From IMG/VR virus record IMGVR_UViG_3300044537_000214: a stretch of DNA of 35,725 bases, one strand, 5' to 3'. Each line of letters begins with the position of its first letter. The first letter of the stretch is position 1. This document shows, piece by piece, positions 2,651 through 23,426 of this stretch. The notes beneath the pieces are model-generated. The model saw nothing but the letters and a program-made list of their open reading frames with translations, was not told where the DNA came from and searched no databases. This DNA is from a virus. The translations under genes and the position numbers were made by a program.

Positions 2651-4033
2651 ATGTCAGAAATTAAAGGGCAAGTAGTTGAAGGAAACGTGTTTATCTATCC
2701 TAAAGACGATGAAATGACAATGCCAGACTTGCTTAAATTTATTAGTAAGAATAAAAGCTTGGCAGAAGAATATAAGCATAACCTTAAAATGTATAAAGGT
2801 AATCATGATATCTTAACCAAGCAACCACGACAGTTTGGACCAGATAATAAGTTGGTGGCCAACCTGCCACATTATATTGTTGATACGTACAATGGTTTCT
2901 TTGCGGGTATTCCGCCTAAGGTAACGCTGGATGATAAAGAAACTAATAGCTTATTGCAAGAATGGAACGATGAGAATTCATTACAAGATAAATTAAGTGA
3001 GATTAGTAAGCAAGCGGACATCTTCGGACGGTCACTTGCTTTTGTTTATCAAGACGAAGATAGTCAAACACGGATTGCCTATTCATCCCCAGTGGATTCT
3101 TTCATGGTTTACGATGATACAGTATCACGACAACCGCTGGCTTTTGTTCGCTATTGGAAGAATACAGATAGTGTTCAAGTCGGAATGGTTTACTACAGTG
3201 ACAAGACTATTTCCTTTGAAGGTAGTAAGTTCGTAGATGAGACAACTAATCCTTATGGTTTAGTCCCGGCCGTTGAGTTTTACGGTAACGAAGAAAGACA
3301 AGGTGTTTTTGATAATGTTAAAACGCTGATTGATGAGTTAGACCGGGTATTATCGCAAAAAGCTAATCAGGTTGAGTATTTTGATAATGCTTATTTAAAA
3401 ATCCTAGGAGTAGACCTAGATCAGGATGGTGATGGTAAACCGGATGCGGATTTAATTGGTAACCAGATGATTTATAGTCCGGATGCTGATGCTACTAATG
3501 CAACTGTTGACTTTATCAGTAAGCCTGATGGAGATAACATGCAAGAACACATTATTGATCGTCTAGTCTCAATGATTTATCAAATTAGCATGGTGGCCAA
3601 TCTTAACGATGAGGCCTTTGCCGGCAATAGTTCTGGTGTTGCTCTGCAATATAAACTCTTGCCAATGCGGAATATGGCCTCGAATAAAGAACGTAAATTT
3701 CGACAAGCTTTGCGGCGTTTATACCGAATTGTGTTTAGTGTCGGTCAAGTATTGCCTGAGGTACATTCAGAGGACTGGAGAGAGCTTAAATTTACTTTCA
3801 AGAGGAATTTACCAGATGACATTTCAAACGATGCAGACATCGCTCGGAAGTTACAGGGGATGGTATCAAAAGAAACACTATTGTCTATTTTGCCATTTGT
3901 TGACGATCCTCAAGAGGAAATCAAACGGATTAGTAAAGAGAAACAAGAGGATATGCAACAAGCTCTTAAATATGGCCCTGCCGCATTAGACCAAGATAAG
4001 CCGGACGGTGATAAAGATGGCGATGTCGAATAG
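2651..4033 (+). CDS. Portal protein (SPP1 Gp6-like)
   Basis: 460 aa, positioned after terL. It has motifs typical of Gp6-type portals (PDNKLVANLPHYIVDTYNGFF) and an acidic C-terminus. Confidence 0.9.
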   Translation: MSEIKGQVVEGNVFIYPKDDEMTMPDLLKFISKNKSLAEEYKHNLKMYKGNHDILTKQPRQFGPDNKLVANLPHYIVDTYNGFFAGIPPKVTLDDKETNSLLQEWNDENSLQDKLSEISKQADIFGRSLAFVYQDEDSQTRIAYSSPVDSFMVYDDTVSRQPLAFVRYWKNTDSVQVGMVYYSDKTISFEGSKFVDETTNPYGLVPAVEFYGNEERQGVFDNVKTLIDELDRVLSQKANQVEYFDNAYLKILGVDLDQDGDGKPDADLIGNQMIYSPDADATNATVDFISKPDGDNMQEHIIDRLVSMIYQISMVANLNDEAFAGNSSGVALQYKLLPMRNMASNKERKFRQALRRLYRIVFSVGQVLPEVHSEDWRELKFTFKRNLPDDISNDADIARKLQGMVSKETLLSILPFVDDPQEEIKRISKEKQEDMQQALKYGPAALDQDKPDGDKDGDVE

Positions 4034-5858
4034 TGATTACTGGAAGAAACGAGAAGATGAAGAACGAAAGTGGCAAAAGAAAAATATTGCTAGTGATGAA
4101 GCTTTTAATCGTTTAATTGAAAGATACTATAATCAGGCTATCTCACAAATCAATAAAGAAATAGATCATCAGTATCAATCTCTCGCTAAGTCTGTGGGTG
4201 GTCTTAGTAATGCTTATTCTACCGTTAACATGACTGATATTGCTGATTATGAAGCTGAGGCTCAAAAGTTAGTTATGCAAGCTGCTCAAATGAGAGCGCA
4301 AGGTAAGAAAGTTACTTATGGTTCATTCAGCGATGATGTCAATCGGCGAATGAAGATCTACAATGCAACCATGCGAATTAATAGATTGGAGTATCTTAAA
4401 AGCCAGGTTGGATTGCATCTTACTGAAGCTAACATGAACATTGAAAATGCCACTCGATTGAAGTTAACCGACAGCTATATCAATGAGGTTAAACGGCAAA
4501 GTGGTATTCTTGGACGTAATCTTAAATTTAATAATGCTTTAATTGAAGATGATAACGTTGCTAAAATCATTATGGCTCAAACTGCTGGAGCAAACTGGAG
4601 TCAGCGATTATGGCTTAACCAAGATGCGCTAAAGGCTCAATTAGACACGATACTTTCAACAGGATTTATAACTGGTCAAAGCAATCAAGCAATGGCCCGT
4701 CAGTTGCGCAATCAGATTAAGAGTACAATTAATAATCATGCATATGTTGCCGAGAGATTAGTGAGAACCGAAACGGCACGTGTTCAATATAAAGCACAAA
4801 TTGATAGTATCAAGGCTGCTGATTATAAATATGTAAAATGGTATGCTGAACCTGGAGCTTGTCGTGTTTGCCAACGAATTGCTGATAATGATGAATATGA
4901 TCTTGGCTATGGTGTGTTTCCAGTGGATGAAGTTCCTCAAATTCCAATTCATCCTAATTGTCGTTGTAGTATTAGTGCTTATTGGGTTGAGGGCAAGGAT
5001 AATTTAGGTAAAAATAGTAGTAAGAAAACTTCTGAGTCATCAGATAAAGATAACTTTCAGAAGCTGATGGATACTGATATTACTAAGTTGAAGAAAGATG
5101 ATATTGAATATCTTGGCAAAGCAATTAATGAAAAATACCATATCGATAGAATGCTAGGTGATAAAGACGGAATTGCTAAAATTATTGCCAATTATCGTCA
5201 AGTTGGTGGTACGGTTGAAAAGAGTCAGTGGATGCCACGGTCAAATGCAAGTGTGAAGAAAGCATTAAATGAAGCTTTTAATCACTACCCCAGTGACTGG
5301 GTTAATTATTTAAATAATGGCGAATTTATGTATGCTGGTAAAAATCAGCGTGGATTTTATACAAGACATTATGTTGATGCACGTGGTAGATTTAAGGCAC
5401 CTTCAACAATAAAGACCCAGTCTGACATTCCAAAATATCTTCAAGATGATAAAGCTGGTAAATATAATACAATCTTTTCATCGGGTCGTCCTACTACAGC
5501 TTGGCATGAGTTAGGCCACTTCGTTGAAACTCATAATGAAGATGTTGAAAGGATCGAAAGAGAGTTTCTTAAAGAGCGGACCAAAGGTGAACAGACAAGC
5601 CGGTTATATGATATTTACAATGGTTTTATTAATTACCGACTAAGTGAAATTACTAAGAAAGATAATTTTATTAATCCATATATCGGTAAAGAATATCCTA
5701 AAGGAACAGAAGTACTTTCGATTGGTTTGGAATCATTATTTGAGCCGGGAAAAGGACAATTAAAATCGATTGGCAAAGATGGTAAGAATAAATATGTTAA
5801 AATTAATGAAGATGAAGAATATTTGAATCTAATACTAGGATTATTATTAAAGGGGTGA
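4017..5858 (+). CDS. Head morphogenesis protein (SPP1 gp7 / Mu F-like) fused to a C-terminal HExxH putative metallopeptidase domain
   Basis: The N-terminal ~330 aa carry MuF hallmarks (RLVRTETARVQYKAQ, CRVCQ...HPNCRCS). A Ser/Lys-rich linker is encoded around 5008..5050. The ~270-aa C-terminal domain contains WHELGHFVE (HELGH encoded at 5505..5519). The start may be 4008, 4017 or 4023. Confidence 0.85.
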   Translation: MAMSNSDYWKKREDEERKWQKKNIASDEAFNRLIERYYNQAISQINKEIDHQYQSLAKSVGGLSNAYSTVNMTDIADYEAEAQKLVMQAAQMRAQGKKVTYGSFSDDVNRRMKIYNATMRINRLEYLKSQVGLHLTEANMNIENATRLKLTDSYINEVKRQSGILGRNLKFNNALIEDDNVAKIIMAQTAGANWSQRLWLNQDALKAQLDTILSTGFITGQSNQAMARQLRNQIKSTINNHAYVAERLVRTETARVQYKAQIDSIKAADYKYVKWYAEPGACRVCQRIADNDEYDLGYGVFPVDEVPQIPIHPNCRCSISAYWVEGKDNLGKNSSKKTSESSDKDNFQKLMDTDITKLKKDDIEYLGKAINEKYHIDRMLGDKDGIAKIIANYRQVGGTVEKSQWMPRSNASVKKALNEAFNHYPSDWVNYLNNGEFMYAGKNQRGFYTRHYVDARGRFKAPSTIKTQSDIPKYLQDDKAGKYNTIFSSGRPTTAWHELGHFVETHNEDVERIEREFLKERTKGEQTSRLYDIYNGFINYRLSEITKKDNFINPYIGKEYPKGTEVLSIGLESLFEPGKGQLKSIGKDGKNKYVKINEDEEYLNLILGLLLKG

Positions 5859-6088
5859 TTATTGTGAGTAAATTGAATGCTGAGTTAAAGAATTTAAAAG
5901 AAGCCCATGATAATTACGAAAAGAAATTTGGCGTTGGTAGTCTTGATAATGCTATTTCTTATTTTGATCCAGTAAACCCAGATATTCATAATATTCAAGA
6001 AGGCATTAAAATCTTGAATGATGCAATTAGAAGTGGGAAGCCTTTACCAAAGCTTTCAAAAGAAATGCAATCAGATATTATCTATTAA
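5855..6088 (+). CDS. Small hypothetical protein immediately downstream of the MuF-HExxH gene; candidate partner or immunity protein
   Basis: 77-aa ORF overlapping the MuF stop codon. A more likely start is the GTG at 5864, which follows AAGGGGTG. It is followed directly by a terminator. Confidence 0.6.
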   Translation: MIIVSKLNAELKNLKEAHDNYEKKFGVGSLDNAISYFDPVNPDIHNIQEGIKILNDAIRSGKPLPKLSKEMQSDIIY

Positions 6089-6117
6089 ACATTCAGATTA
6101 ATTCTGAGTGTTTTTTA
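6088..6117 (+). terminator. Rho-independent terminator inside the structural module
   Basis: Stem aacattcaga / ttctgagtg(t) with a ttaa loop, followed by TTTTTT (6111..6116). Confidence 0.7.
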
Positions 6118-6271
6118 TTTTCTTAATTAAATTATTTTCAAAGAGGATCCTTTATTTTCAAGGGTTCTCTTTTTTCGTAACTAAATTATGTCCGTTCCGT
6201 GTGTAGTGGACGTTAAACAAAACCCGAGCAGTCTCCCAGGACATTAAATGCGAGTAAAGGAGGTCCACAAC

Positions 6272-6874
6272 ATGGACGAAAATAACAACACTGAAGTTCA
6301 AGAACCACAAGTTACTGATCAACCAAAGGATACTGGTACCGATCCAAAGGAAGATAACAAATTAGATGGTGACAAATTAGTTAAGAAACTTCAAAAACGA
6401 ATTGGTAAGGAACAGAACGAGAAGCATTCTCTCCAAGAACGGTTAGATAAGGCTAATGCGAAAATTAAAGAGCTTCAATCTGGCAAGGCAAATAAAGATT
6501 CATTAGATATAGAGGCAACTATGTCAAAAGAAAGCGAGAAAGATAAAGAAATCGCTTCTCTTCGTGCTCAAATTGCCCGCCGTGACAATATTAAGCAAAC
6601 AGATGAAGTCTTTAAGGAAGCTGGTCTAACTGTTAGTGATGATGTGCTCAACATGGTTGTAGTTGATGACGAAAAACAAACTTATGCAAATGTTCAAGCA
6701 CTAATTAAATACACTAATCAAATTCAAAGTGGAGTTAAGAAGGACTTACTCAAAGGTTCTACACCTAGAACGAATGGCAAGCCAACAATGACTAAGGATG
6801 AAATCAACAAGATTAAGGATCCAATCAAACGGCAACAAGCCATTGCAGATAATTTAAGCCTATATCAGCATTAG
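6272..6874 (+). CDS. Capsid scaffolding protein
   Basis: AAGGAGG (6258..6264) precedes the ATG at 6272; the track start at 6248 lacks an SD. The N-terminus is acidic and is followed by coiled coil. The gene lies directly upstream of the capsid gene. Confidence 0.8.
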   Translation: MDENNNTEVQEPQVTDQPKDTGTDPKEDNKLDGDKLVKKLQKRIGKEQNEKHSLQERLDKANAKIKELQSGKANKDSLDIEATMSKESEKDKEIASLRAQIARRDNIKQTDEVFKEAGLTVSDDVLNMVVVDDEKQTYANVQALIKYTNQIQSGVKKDLLKGSTPRTNGKPTMTKDEINKIKDPIKRQQAIADNLSLYQH

Positions 6875-6886
6875 GAGGAATAATTT

Positions 6887-7753
6887 ATGGCAACAGAAAA
6901 TATTACTACATCAAAGGATTTAATTGCACAATCTATTGATTTTACAGAACGATTTACTGGTTCAATTAGTACTTTGCTTCAAGCAATGAACGTAACACGA
7001 ATGCAACCAATGGCTGTTGGTTCACAGATTAAGATTTACAAGTCAGAAGTAAGCAAGGCAGATGGTAACGTCGCTGAAGGTGAAGTTATTCCACTTAGCA
7101 AAGTAACTAAGAAGCTAGCTAGTACTAAGGAACTGGTTTATAAGAAGTACCGTAAGCAAACCACCGCTGAATCGATTCAATCAGCTGGTTTTGGTCCGGC
7201 TGTAAATGACACTGATAGTAAGTTACTTCGTGCTATTCAAGGTGATATTAAAAAGGATTTCTTTGATTTTGTTCAAACTGGTACTACTAAAACAGATGGA
7301 ACTGACTTTAAGAAAGCCGCTGCTCATGCACTTGGGCAATTAACAATTAAGTGGGAAGATGACGACGTTCAATCAGTTCTCTTTGCTAACCCACTAGATT
7401 TTTACGACTACTTGGGCGATTCAGATATCACTACTCAAACTGCTTTTGGTCTGACTTATATTCAAAACTACCTTGGTTTTAACGCCATTATTTTAACCGG
7501 TGCAATCAAACAAGGCACAATTGCTGCTACTGCTAGTCAAAACTTGAACTACGCTTATGCTGCAATGAATGGTAGTCTAAGCCAAGCATTTAACTTAACG
7601 ACCGATGAAACTGGTTTGATTGGTGTTGTTCATAATGCTCTGACCGAAAATGCCTCATATGAAACTATGTCACTGACTTCTGGCGTGCTATTCCCTGAAC
7701 GACTTGACGGCATTGTAGTTGCAACCATTGGTGAGGCTTCTGCGTCAAAATAA
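6887..7753 (+). CDS. Major capsid protein
   Basis: 288 aa with a strong RBS (AGGAGG). It lies between the scaffold and head-tail connector genes, and its composition is typical of siphovirus major head proteins. Confidence 0.85.
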   Translation: MATENITTSKDLIAQSIDFTERFTGSISTLLQAMNVTRMQPMAVGSQIKIYKSEVSKADGNVAEGEVIPLSKVTKKLASTKELVYKKYRKQTTAESIQSAGFGPAVNDTDSKLLRAIQGDIKKDFFDFVQTGTTKTDGTDFKKAAAHALGQLTIKWEDDDVQSVLFANPLDFYDYLGDSDITTQTAFGLTYIQNYLGFNAIILTGAIKQGTIAATASQNLNYAYAAMNGSLSQAFNLTTDETGLIGVVHNALTENASYETMSLTSGVLFPERLDGIVVATIGEASASK

Positions 7754-22221: not shown

Positions 22222-23346
22222 TTAAAATTGACTAAGTGCCTGGACGATTTTGTCATCAGTTTTACTTTTATATTCATCAATCAAGTAGGCGTATGTGTTC
22301 ATTGTGGTTGTGATATCATTATGTCCAAGTCTTTTGCTAATTGCATAAATATCTATTCCGTTGCTTAACAGTAAAGCAACGTGACTATGACGTAAACTAT
22401 GGAAATGAAAATTCTTCTTTGATAATTTTGTATCACTCATAATTTGTCGAAGCGTTTTATTTAATGCTGTACTAGTAGGGATAGTATTAAATTGATCCAT
22501 AAAAACAAGGTTACTTGATGAATTATTGCGCAATTGTTTAAGTAGTAATAGTAGTTCTTCATTAACTTTTATTTTACGTGTAGATGATTCATTCTTGGTG
22601 GGTTTAAAGCGATGTGTATTAAAATGTTCGTCTGTTTCGTCTCTTCCTTTTACCTCTCTCCATGCTTTATCAATATTAATGGTATGATGAATAAAATCAA
22701 TATCATTCCAGGTAAGAGCTTGAATTTCTTCTTTTCTCATTCCAGTATATATTGCAGTGACTATCATATAACGGCTTGTATATCTTCTATTAGTAATTCC
22801 ATTGATTGTAGTAGTTAATAATTTCCTTATTTCAGTTACATTAGGGTATTCTACCTTCATTGTTTTACTAGTATTGGCAGCTAAAGTAACACCTTTGGTA
22901 AAATCTTTAAGCAGATAATCATCAAGGATAGCAGATTGTACACAAGACCGTATTATTGAATTAAGCTTCTTTACACTTGCTATAGCATGAGTTGCTCCAT
23001 ACTTATTAATAAATTCTTGATATTTAGAACGGTTAATTTCTTTAATAGAAGCTTCTTTGAAATAATCATTAATTAGATTACCGATTATAATATAACGATT
23101 CAGAGTTACACTTGATATTTTAGGTTGCTTATAAGTATTAACCCATTCTTCGTAATAATCACTAAAAGCAATTTTTTTCTCAATGTGTATTCCGCGATTA
23201 AGATTAGTTTCCATTTCAGCTGCCCACTTTTTAGCTAGTGCTTTTGTTGCAAAACCAGCTTTGGACTTTGAAAAACGTTTTCCTTCAGTATCTTTCCACT
23301 GAATTCTTACAGACCATTTTCCGCTTCTTTTATATATTTGAGCCAT
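22222..23346 (-). CDS. int: Tyrosine recombinase / phage integrase
   Basis: The catalytic region HSLRHSHVALLL...GHNDITTTMNTYAYL carries the R..HxxR..Y signature. An N-terminal SAM-like domain is present. The ATG at 23346 (MAQIYKR) follows GGAGGG, and the track start at 23409 is unlikely. Confidence 0.9.
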   Translation of the reverse strand: MAQIYKRSGKWSVRIQWKDTEGKRFSKSKAGFATKALAKKWAAEMETNLNRGIHIEKKIAFSDYYEEWVNTYKQPKISSVTLNRYIIIGNLINDYFKEASIKEINRSKYQEFINKYGATHAIASVKKLNSIIRSCVQSAILDDYLLKDFTKGVTLAANTSKTMKVEYPNVTEIRKLLTTTINGITNRRYTSRYMIVTAIYTGMRKEEIQALTWNDIDFIHHTINIDKAWREVKGRDETDEHFNTHRFKPTKNESSTRKIKVNEELLLLLKQLRNNSSSNLVFMDQFNTIPTSTALNKTLRQIMSDTKLSKKNFHFHSLRHSHVALLLSNGIDIYAISKRLGHNDITTTMNTYAYLIDEYKSKTDDKIVQALSQF

Positions 23347-23426
23347 ACTTGTCCCTCCATTATTAAATTGTGTATAATGAAAGGGTTGATAGAATTTGTT
23401 TGGACGCAATTAATATCAACCCTTGG

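Follow-up and report, generated by a model that had tools for sequence, protein, structure and literature searches.

A conserved two-gene head-module cassette encoding a MuF minor head protein with a zincin-like C-terminal domain and a small acidic partner in a temperate siphophage genome

The window analyzed here, the whole 35,725-nucleotide (nt) stretch of the IMG/VR virus record IMGVR_UViG_3300044537_000214, carries on its plus strand the gene of a MuF-metallopeptidase-like minor head protein (positions 4017..5858), which is followed by a gene coding for a small acidic protein (5855..6088). These two genes form a conserved two-gene cassette in the head module, and both are more than chance open reading frames (ORFs), as they have many homologs under clear conservation. 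According to the ORF list, the first gene codes for 613 amino acids (aa) from the ATG at 4017, and an alternative GTG start at 4008 would extend the product to 616 aa. Its protein was matched from end to end by phrog_19443 (“minor head protein”; residues 8–613 against profile positions 2–579 of 579, E = 1e-107). The core MuF or SPP1 gp7 domain covers residues 211–319 (4647..4973, plus strand) and ends at a Cys knuckle that reads CRVCQ...HPNCRCS in the translation. TIGR01641 (phageSPP1_gp7) scored 40.2 bits on these residues, just over its cutoff of 39.65, and PF04233 (Phage_Mu_F) scored 25.7 bits (E = 2e-5) on the window protein, just under its cutoff of 29.6, and 36.5 bits on the cluster representative P0008. 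A low-complexity Ser/Lys-rich linker, GKNSSKKTSESSDKD (5016..5069, plus strand), leads from the MuF part to a C-terminal 276-aa zincin-like metallopeptidase domain (5028..5855, plus strand), hereafter the C-domain, which was delimited by profile search, structure modeling, and invariant residues. A preliminary description of the window, made from its sequence alone, had proposed a MuF/gp7 head protein fused to an additional HExxH domain, and the TIGR01641 score above the cutoff and the HELGH motif encoded at 5505–5519 bear this out; the Cys knuckle, the linker, an overlapping 77-aa ORF, and a terminator behind it were also all found where they had been placed.

The putative metal-binding and catalytic motif of the C-domain is HELGHFVE (5505..5528, plus strand; C-domain residues 160–167), which has the form HExGHxxE and lies in the WHELGHFVETH region, TAWHELGHFVETH, encoded at 5496–5534. 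HExxH was present in 151 of 157 homologs; of the six without it, five are incomplete sequences that do not reach across the motif region, and one reads HKIGH. Alignments of members that are only 20–30% identical overall show little or no variation in HExGHxxE and in about 12 residues downstream of it, and because of this the conservation pattern points to a working active site. The conserved positions are, in C-domain numbering, P88, W91, R108, G109, H160, E161, G163, H164, E167, R184, and T185, followed in the downstream part by Y203, E207, D212, F214, Y218, G220, K221, Y223, E228, and G233. Candidates for the third metal ligand are the nearly invariant E167 and the invariant E207, D212, and E228. 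The homolog in which HKIGH replaces HExGH, P0057 (235 aa), may be a catalytically dead variant.

The structure of the C-domain was modeled by AlphaFold2 with an alignment of 36 sequences, which gave a predicted local distance difference test score (pLDDT) of 93.2 and a predicted template modeling score of 0.91 and was used instead of an eight-sequence alignment that had led to an unusable model (pLDDT 56.6). The predicted elements are an N-terminal helical region, strands at residues 100–105, 110–112, and 146–151, a helix at 155–169 that contains HELGH, a helix at 171–184, and a later helix at 229–238 that is preceded by the invariant E228. This order is compatible with the zincin core as described by Iyer et al. 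(2017; PMC5512222), a compatibility that is no test of the fold. A Foldseek search of the model against the PDB returned nothing at E ≤ 0.001 (top match E = 0.59 with a template modeling score of 0.13; M32 carboxypeptidase, E = 2.8). Significant neighbors in BFVD were only uncharacterized or “head morphogenesis” phage proteins, and SprT, lethal factor, M48, and the N4 virion RNA polymerase appeared at E > 0.1. Sequence searches of the PDB with the single C-domain, the 36-sequence profile, and a core-only profile also gave nothing significant, the best match being the active-site segment of FtsH (M41) with E ~0.44, below significance. Scans of Pfam and NCBIfam found no family that covers the C-domain and no Pfam peptidase family at threshold; sub-threshold Pfam matches of single members were to M78, M41, and Reprolysin_3.

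Particular attention is due to PF18818 (MPTase-PolyVal), the polyvalent zincins of Iyer et al. (2017; PMC5512222), which share with the C-domain the HExxH helix, a downstream acidic residue, and their occurrence in virion-associated phage proteins; as in PF18818 systems, some relatives of the C-domain have two copies or an added ADP-ribosyltransferase. One phage clade in that study also has an acidic residue three positions after HExxH, but the His that this clade conserves where strand 2 ends was not seen in the C-domain, which has an invariant RG(F/Y) instead. The profile itself matched neither the window protein nor any of 36 trimmed domains (0/36) and only one of 66 full-length representatives (E = 1.2e-4), with a best score of 18.6 bits against a cutoff of 27.5 on residues 270–306 of P0067, directly over the HExxH core. 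Since no family or fold match was significant and the sub-threshold matches were consistently to zincins, the label is restricted to “zincin-like,” and the C-domain is best regarded as representing a family outside existing descriptions whose fold is unproven. The earlier remark that the family of this domain could not be recognized thus agrees with its absence from Pfam, NCBIfam, and the PDB. The zinc-metallopeptidase signature noted at the same time is upheld as far as the motif is concerned, whereas the peptidase fold was left unconfirmed by a model of high pLDDT that has no significant PDB neighbor. A non-catalytic structural or decoration domain, in which HExxH would be incidental, is nevertheless very improbable, because HExGHxxE does not vary, nor do several acidic residues downstream of it, at such low overall identity, and the sub-threshold similarities are solely to zincin active sites; it would account for the lack of a significant structural match to any peptidase, for the lack of a Pfam peptidase family at threshold, and for the one homolog with HKIGH.

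An exhaustive HMMER profile search retrieved 4,313 clusters (50% identity) at E ≤ 1e-3, a lower bound for the size of the family, and 1,271 clusters at E ≤ 1e-10. The architecture, first thought to be unusual, is therefore a common one, being matched end to end by PHROG 19443 and belonging to a family of at least 4,313 clusters. The C-domain ends no more than 40 residues from the protein C-terminus in 156 of 157 retrieved proteins, and six large proteins have two copies of it. Pfam domains accompanying it in the 66 full-length representatives were limited to Phage_Mu_F (n = 47), Phage_min_cap2 (n = 4), Portal_Mu (n = 1), and ADP-ribosyltransferase domains (additionally present in three proteins); no other toxin-trafficking or delivery domain was found on the C-domain proteins of this set. 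When the C-terminal 276 aa were used in tblastn, matches were obtained in phages of several phyla. Carriers include the Lactococcus P335 subgroup IV phages 62503 and 50902, the Streptococcus pyogenes prophage 315.3, 12 Javan prophage records, Bacillus phage vB_BboS-125, Planktothrix phage PaV-LD, and a Flavobacterium phage. Related prophages occur in Ligilactobacillus, Lactobacillus, Enterococcus, Pseudolactococcus, Veillonella, Selenomonadaceae, and Megasphaera, and a distant one in Nitrosomonas. A megablast search with positions 4017–6088 gave no match among GenBank phages. In vB_BboS-125 (L003/L133), P0121, and P0122 an ADP-ribosyltransferase lies between the MuF part and the C-domain, a true polyvalent layout.

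The small acidic partner gene (5855..6088, plus strand), characterized by homolog linkage and by a C-terminal motif, encodes 77 aa from GTG 5855, which overlaps the TGA stop codon of the MuF gene (5856–5858), or 74 aa from the in-frame GTG 5864. It stops at TAA 6086–6088, and its product ends in ...DIIY-COOH. Because the Shine-Dalgarno sequence AAGGGG (5849–5854) is better spaced from GTG 5864 than from GTG 5855, a 74-aa product is possible, and this may be the true one. In the near subfamily, whose C-domains are 37–100% identical, a partner homolog was located at −13 to +28 nt of the stop codon in 82 of 83 viral loci, and a partner was also present downstream in each of the 13 independent genome loci from the same subfamily. 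In the distant subfamily, with ~30% C-domain identity to the window, 74 of 75 usable loci have an ORF of 70–125 aa at −40 to +25 nt, and the remaining one (L142) has a 160-aa ORF at −36 nt instead. Both subfamilies pooled, 157 of 158 C-domain genes (82/83 near and 75/75 distant loci) have a small ORF immediately behind them, in comparison to 7.5% of the other genes of at least 300 aa in the same loci. The linkage was also found in the reverse direction, as all five loci fetched via divergent small-ORF homologs, one of them from a myophage, contained a C-domain gene upstream. The short-MuF phages SPP1 and Tuc2009, used as negative controls, lack the C-domain as well as every partner family. To judge from this linkage and conservation the small ORF is a real, dedicated, and conserved partner, in line with its initial interpretation as a partner gene, and it is by all appearances translationally coupled to the MuF gene.

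Most small ORFs of the distant subfamily have no sequence relation to the window partner, and the partners form at least three families that are not linked by BLAST: family A (53 unique sequences, mean net charge −4.5), family B (34 unique sequences, −10.4), and family C (15 unique sequences, −8.0). Acidity and a C-terminal [IVLM][FY] are common to the three. The ending [IVLM][FY]-COOH was present in 48/53 (91%) sequences of family A and 30/34 of family B, compared with 1/338 (0.3%) background small ORFs. Common ancestry of family A and the pooled families B and C was rejected, as hhalign gave a probability of 1.2% and aligned the C-terminal tail alone. A programmed frameshift that would fuse the two ORFs was rejected as well, since elsewhere the partner begins 4–28 nt past the stop codon in a frame that varies. 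Searches of the small ORFs against GenBank phages by tblastn retrieved four Lactococcus records only and nothing for the window's own protein.

Comparison with a related phage (L008) revealed a mosaic block of 68–79% identity that starts in the linker, takes in the whole partner gene, and has 86–98% identity on either side, and inside this block the partner co-diverges with the C-domain. The linker is the least conserved stretch and forms the left edge of the block (68% identity at 5001–5200 versus 86–98% upstream). In decayed prophages of Negativicutes a catalytic-core fragment is still followed by the partner ORF even where the MuF part is gone or broken. Both findings place the partner with the peptidase core and not with MuF. 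In addition, the MuF backbones of TP901-1 and Tuc2009 are 41–43% identical to those of C-domain carriers and differ from them in their C-terminal ends: the TP901-1 backbone bears an unrelated extension and an unrelated 75-aa ORF, and that of Tuc2009 bears neither. These exchanges, together with the orphan fragments of core and partner, agree with the preliminary description in that the C-terminus of MuF proteins carries variable domains, and over longer timescales it is evidently a site of cassette swapping.

Such behavior raises the question of whether the cassette is a MuF toxin. In Jamet et al. (2017; PMC5576092), 20% of MuF toxins are reported with metallopeptidases and 89% with a following ORF of less than 150 aa. 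The gene pair resembles these toxins in its N-terminal MuF domain within the packaging and head module, its putatively enzymatic C-terminal extension with a small ORF immediately downstream, its temperate Firmicutes phage background, and the exchangeability of the cassette on MuF backbones. Moreover, their Table S1 lists the homolog in phage 315.3 as MuF3 with a C-terminal extension (“Cter-Tox,” toxin field “unknown”). A classical polymorphic toxin with immunity, that is, an injected growth-inhibiting peptidase whose cognate immunity protein is the small partner, would agree with this layout (PMC5576092), with the existence of cassette swapping and of orphan core and partner fragments, and with a temperate, integrase-encoding phage. 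However, the C-domain is not the variable but the most conserved part of the protein, with ~40% identity versus 22–28% for the MuF part and 0.82 versus 0.50 bits per residue. BLAST failed to detect the MuF part in 10 of 62 distinct comparisons in which the C-domain was still 35–42% identical. Conservation above that of MuF argues against a diversifying toxin tip, and the catalytic core is unchanged across host phyla, unlike that of an effector in an arms race. The restriction of the C-domain to the few accompanying domains named above, with no other toxin-delivery domain in the 66 representatives, also sets it apart from the toxins of Jamet et al., as does its ancient origin. Furthermore, the partner gene is situated in a late operon and translationally coupled, so that its product would protect the producing cell and not lysogens. 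The cassette logic of Jamet et al. applies, yet to a cassette that is ancient and conserved. A toxin with its immunity protein is thus quite unlikely, and the polymorphic-toxin-like character initially attributed to the gene pair was not supported by the identity values or by the domain partners.

Several loci have the cassette in incomplete or split form. Four loci from Negativicutes contain catalytic-core fragments only (85–173 aa), each followed by a family A partner (L176, 1950–3235; L177, 2462–3250; L179, 1413–2380; L180, 2504–3327), and look like decayed prophages with orphan cassettes. The gene order is family B partner, orphan core fragment, and family A partner in L176, and partner, fragment, and partner in L179; the core of L180 is divided between two ORFs (117 and 85 aa). 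The MuF protein of L176 shares 82% identity with a C-domain carrier across residues 1–374, after which the similarity breaks off. Among the part of the intervening ORFs that was scanned in L176 and L180, no scaffold or capsid ORF was identified before the head-tail adaptor gene. In L118 (2935–4817), MuF (351 aa) and C-domain (194 aa) are encoded apart, in two ORFs of different frame with a 29-nt overlap, and a partner ORF matching the pooled profile of families B and C follows them; the gene may be split or frameshifted here, or the sequence may contain an error. In L170 (2321–4006; Ligilactobacillus sp. WC1T17) the C-domain ORF segment has 337 aa, the MuF part apparently being cut off, and two family A partner matches lie downstream (3335–3562 and 3716–4006).

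The interpretation favored here, for which we consider the chances to be about even, is a packaged zinc peptidase that is tethered to the portal, is kept latent or escorted by its co-translated partner, and acts on a conserved substrate. In SPP1, a protein of this MuF/gp7 type sits on the portal within the procapsid, is packaged in a few copies, and leaves the particle together with the DNA. By analogy, the MuF part would carry a few peptidase copies into the capsid and tether them to the portal, with the flexible linker joining it to the metallopeptidase-like domain. The acidic partner of ~75 aa, made at the same time and place, would bind the peptidase in the producing cell and either keep it latent or act as its chaperone, with the conserved aliphatic-aromatic tail at the C-terminus of the partner as the most promising site of contact. 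The peptidase would then act inside the head, or after exit with the DNA, on a conserved substrate. Beyond the observed architecture, conservation, partner linkage, and cassette behavior, this model would entail packaging, catalysis, binding or inhibition by the partner, and a substrate. It is supported by the MuF identity and portal-adjacent position of the protein and by the linkage of the partner (157/158 versus the 7.5% baseline), which held in the reverse test and the negative controls. Further support comes from the invariant motif residues, the zincin-compatible order of elements, the sub-threshold zincin matches, the retention of the partner beside orphan cores, and the features shared by the three partner families.

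Among characterized phages, SPP1 gp7 and Tuc2009 MCP1 correspond to the window protein in their post-portal position, their homologous MuF domain, and the order portal, MuF, scaffold, and capsid, but they are shorter (308 and 346 aa, respectively), and the C-domain and all partner families are absent from them. According to literature cited in PMC4493119, SPP1 gp7 is taken into the procapsid via the portal and is found in the virion, and both SPP1 gp7 and TP901-1 MCP1 are described as portal-associated capsid proteins that affect infectivity (PMC4493119). TP901-1 offers a similar arrangement, as MCP1 (ORF33) is a MuF protein with a 28-kDa C-terminal extension, followed by the 75-aa MCP2 (ORF34) and a scaffold gene (PMC4493119). 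In the knockouts reported there, MCP1::Ter was infection-defective and MCP2::Ter viable with few particles. MCP1 and MCP2 were rejected as homologs of the cassette, since the extension lacks HExxH and is not homologous and MCP2 is unrelated to every partner family. The treatment of virion metallopeptidase domains by Iyer et al. is a general one, with no mention of a partner gene (PMC5512222).

Several observations weigh against the model of a packaged peptidase restrained by its partner. The peptidase fold is not demonstrated by the Foldseek comparison with the PDB, and a literature search found no virion proteomics for any member of the family. Bacillus phage vB_BboS-125 has no adjacent small ORF and is the sole exception among the C-domain genes examined, and family C partners often lack the aromatic C-terminus (5/15). 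Furthermore, a substrate within the phage itself would explain the strong conservation no worse than a target in the host would.

An alternative is a head-assembly protease, in which the MuF-tethered metallopeptidase would remove the scaffold, trim head proteins, or cut itself at the linker within the procapsid, thereby replacing an absent prohead protease, and the small acidic protein would serve as a substrate, as an internal protein, or as an inhibitor that sets the timing. Free-standing scaffold genes were present in 16 of 21 diverse C-domain loci, with varied capsid protein families, and the Pfam and PHROG listings of these 21 head modules contained no canonical prohead protease, nor does the window between its portal and capsid genes. 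This absence does not discriminate between the possibilities, because short-MuF modules of the SPP1 type, which are without the C-domain, are without a prohead protease too. Conservation above that of MuF suggests a conserved and probably phage-encoded substrate, and autoprocessing roles have been proposed for virion metallopeptidase domains (Iyer et al., 2017; PMC5512222). In addition, phrog_595 (“head maturation protease”) matched residues 6–568 (4017–5720; E = 1e-46). This label may do no more than reflect the HExxH motif; the same profile also matched plain MuF parts in L176 and L179. On the other hand, the scaffolds of SPP1 and P22 exit intact, SPP1 and Tuc2009 manage without a C-domain, and a few portal-bound copies would need to process hundreds of scaffold molecules. 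If this alternative applied, the C-domain would have in common with the prohead proteases HK97 gp4 (S78), ClpP-like S14, and T4 gp21 that they are encoded in head modules and act in the procapsid. Their folds and catalytic types are unrelated, however, none of them is a metallopeptidase or fused to MuF, and no homology to them was detected in the Pfam and PHROG scans. To our knowledge all known prohead proteases are of the serine or assemblin type. A head-assembly protease is on these grounds unlikely, though less so than a toxin. A more ambitious reading is tentative and somewhat doubtful. It would see in the cassette an undescribed and very widespread pair of peptidase and inhibitor (or substrate) in phage heads, with a new metallopeptidase family and a partner that gates the activity by inserting its C-terminus into the active site. 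In its strongest version, MuF would hold at the portal a capsid-maturation protease that is the first of the metallo type.

Prophages of gut, dairy, and pathogenic Firmicutes frequently encode MuF proteins that are extended at the C-terminus. New here are the definition of the family, the acidic partner with its conserved C-terminal tail, and a domain that has no solved structural neighbor. Since the family is conserved rather than diversifying and travels with an acidic partner, the question moves from which toxin it encodes to which conserved proteolytic step, in the head or at entry, many phages need. Lactococcus phage 62503, prophages of S. pyogenes similar to 315.3, and prophages of L. 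reuteri are tractable carriers for addressing it. If it is true that the tail of the partner plugs the active site, the partner would be a new type of protease regulator.

Based on its gene content, the whole stretch is a complete genome of a temperate siphophage, which encodes TerS, TerL, portal, head genes, tape measure, Dit/Tal, a GH25 lysin, a helicase, a VapE-like primase, and an integrase (22222–23409, minus strand). The head module has the order portal, MuF gene, partner, scaffold, and capsid. The SPP1-type portal protein gene (2651..4033, plus strand; PF05133 SPP1_portal, E = 4.3e-113) overlaps with its 3' end the start of the MuF gene at 4017, and the scaffolding protein gene (6248..6874, plus strand) was recognized by PF14265 (DUF4355, E = 1.2e-7). 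A 288-aa ORF at 6887–7753 has no Pfam match at E ≤ 1 and sits at the position of the major capsid protein. The partner gene is followed by a terminator-like hairpin with a T-tract (6087..6122, plus strand), which consists of an 11-pair stem (6087–6113) with a loop of 5 nt and then TTTATTTTCT; five terminator-like sites were observed in the region, compared to 1.3 expected. Between the partner and scaffold genes, a 160-nt non-coding gap (6089–6247) interrupts the late operon and contains a second, imperfect hairpin followed by T6 at ~6143–6176. At the matching gap the related phage L008 has an insertion of 361 nt. The C-domain is 100% identical to that of contig CAMYRF010000002.1 (35,952 bp), which was binned into an “uncultured Tenericutes” metagenome-assembled genome. 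Because the nearest proteins are from Limosilactobacillus reuteri and Ligilactobacillus, this contig probably represents a phage of a Lactobacillaceae host that was binned wrongly.

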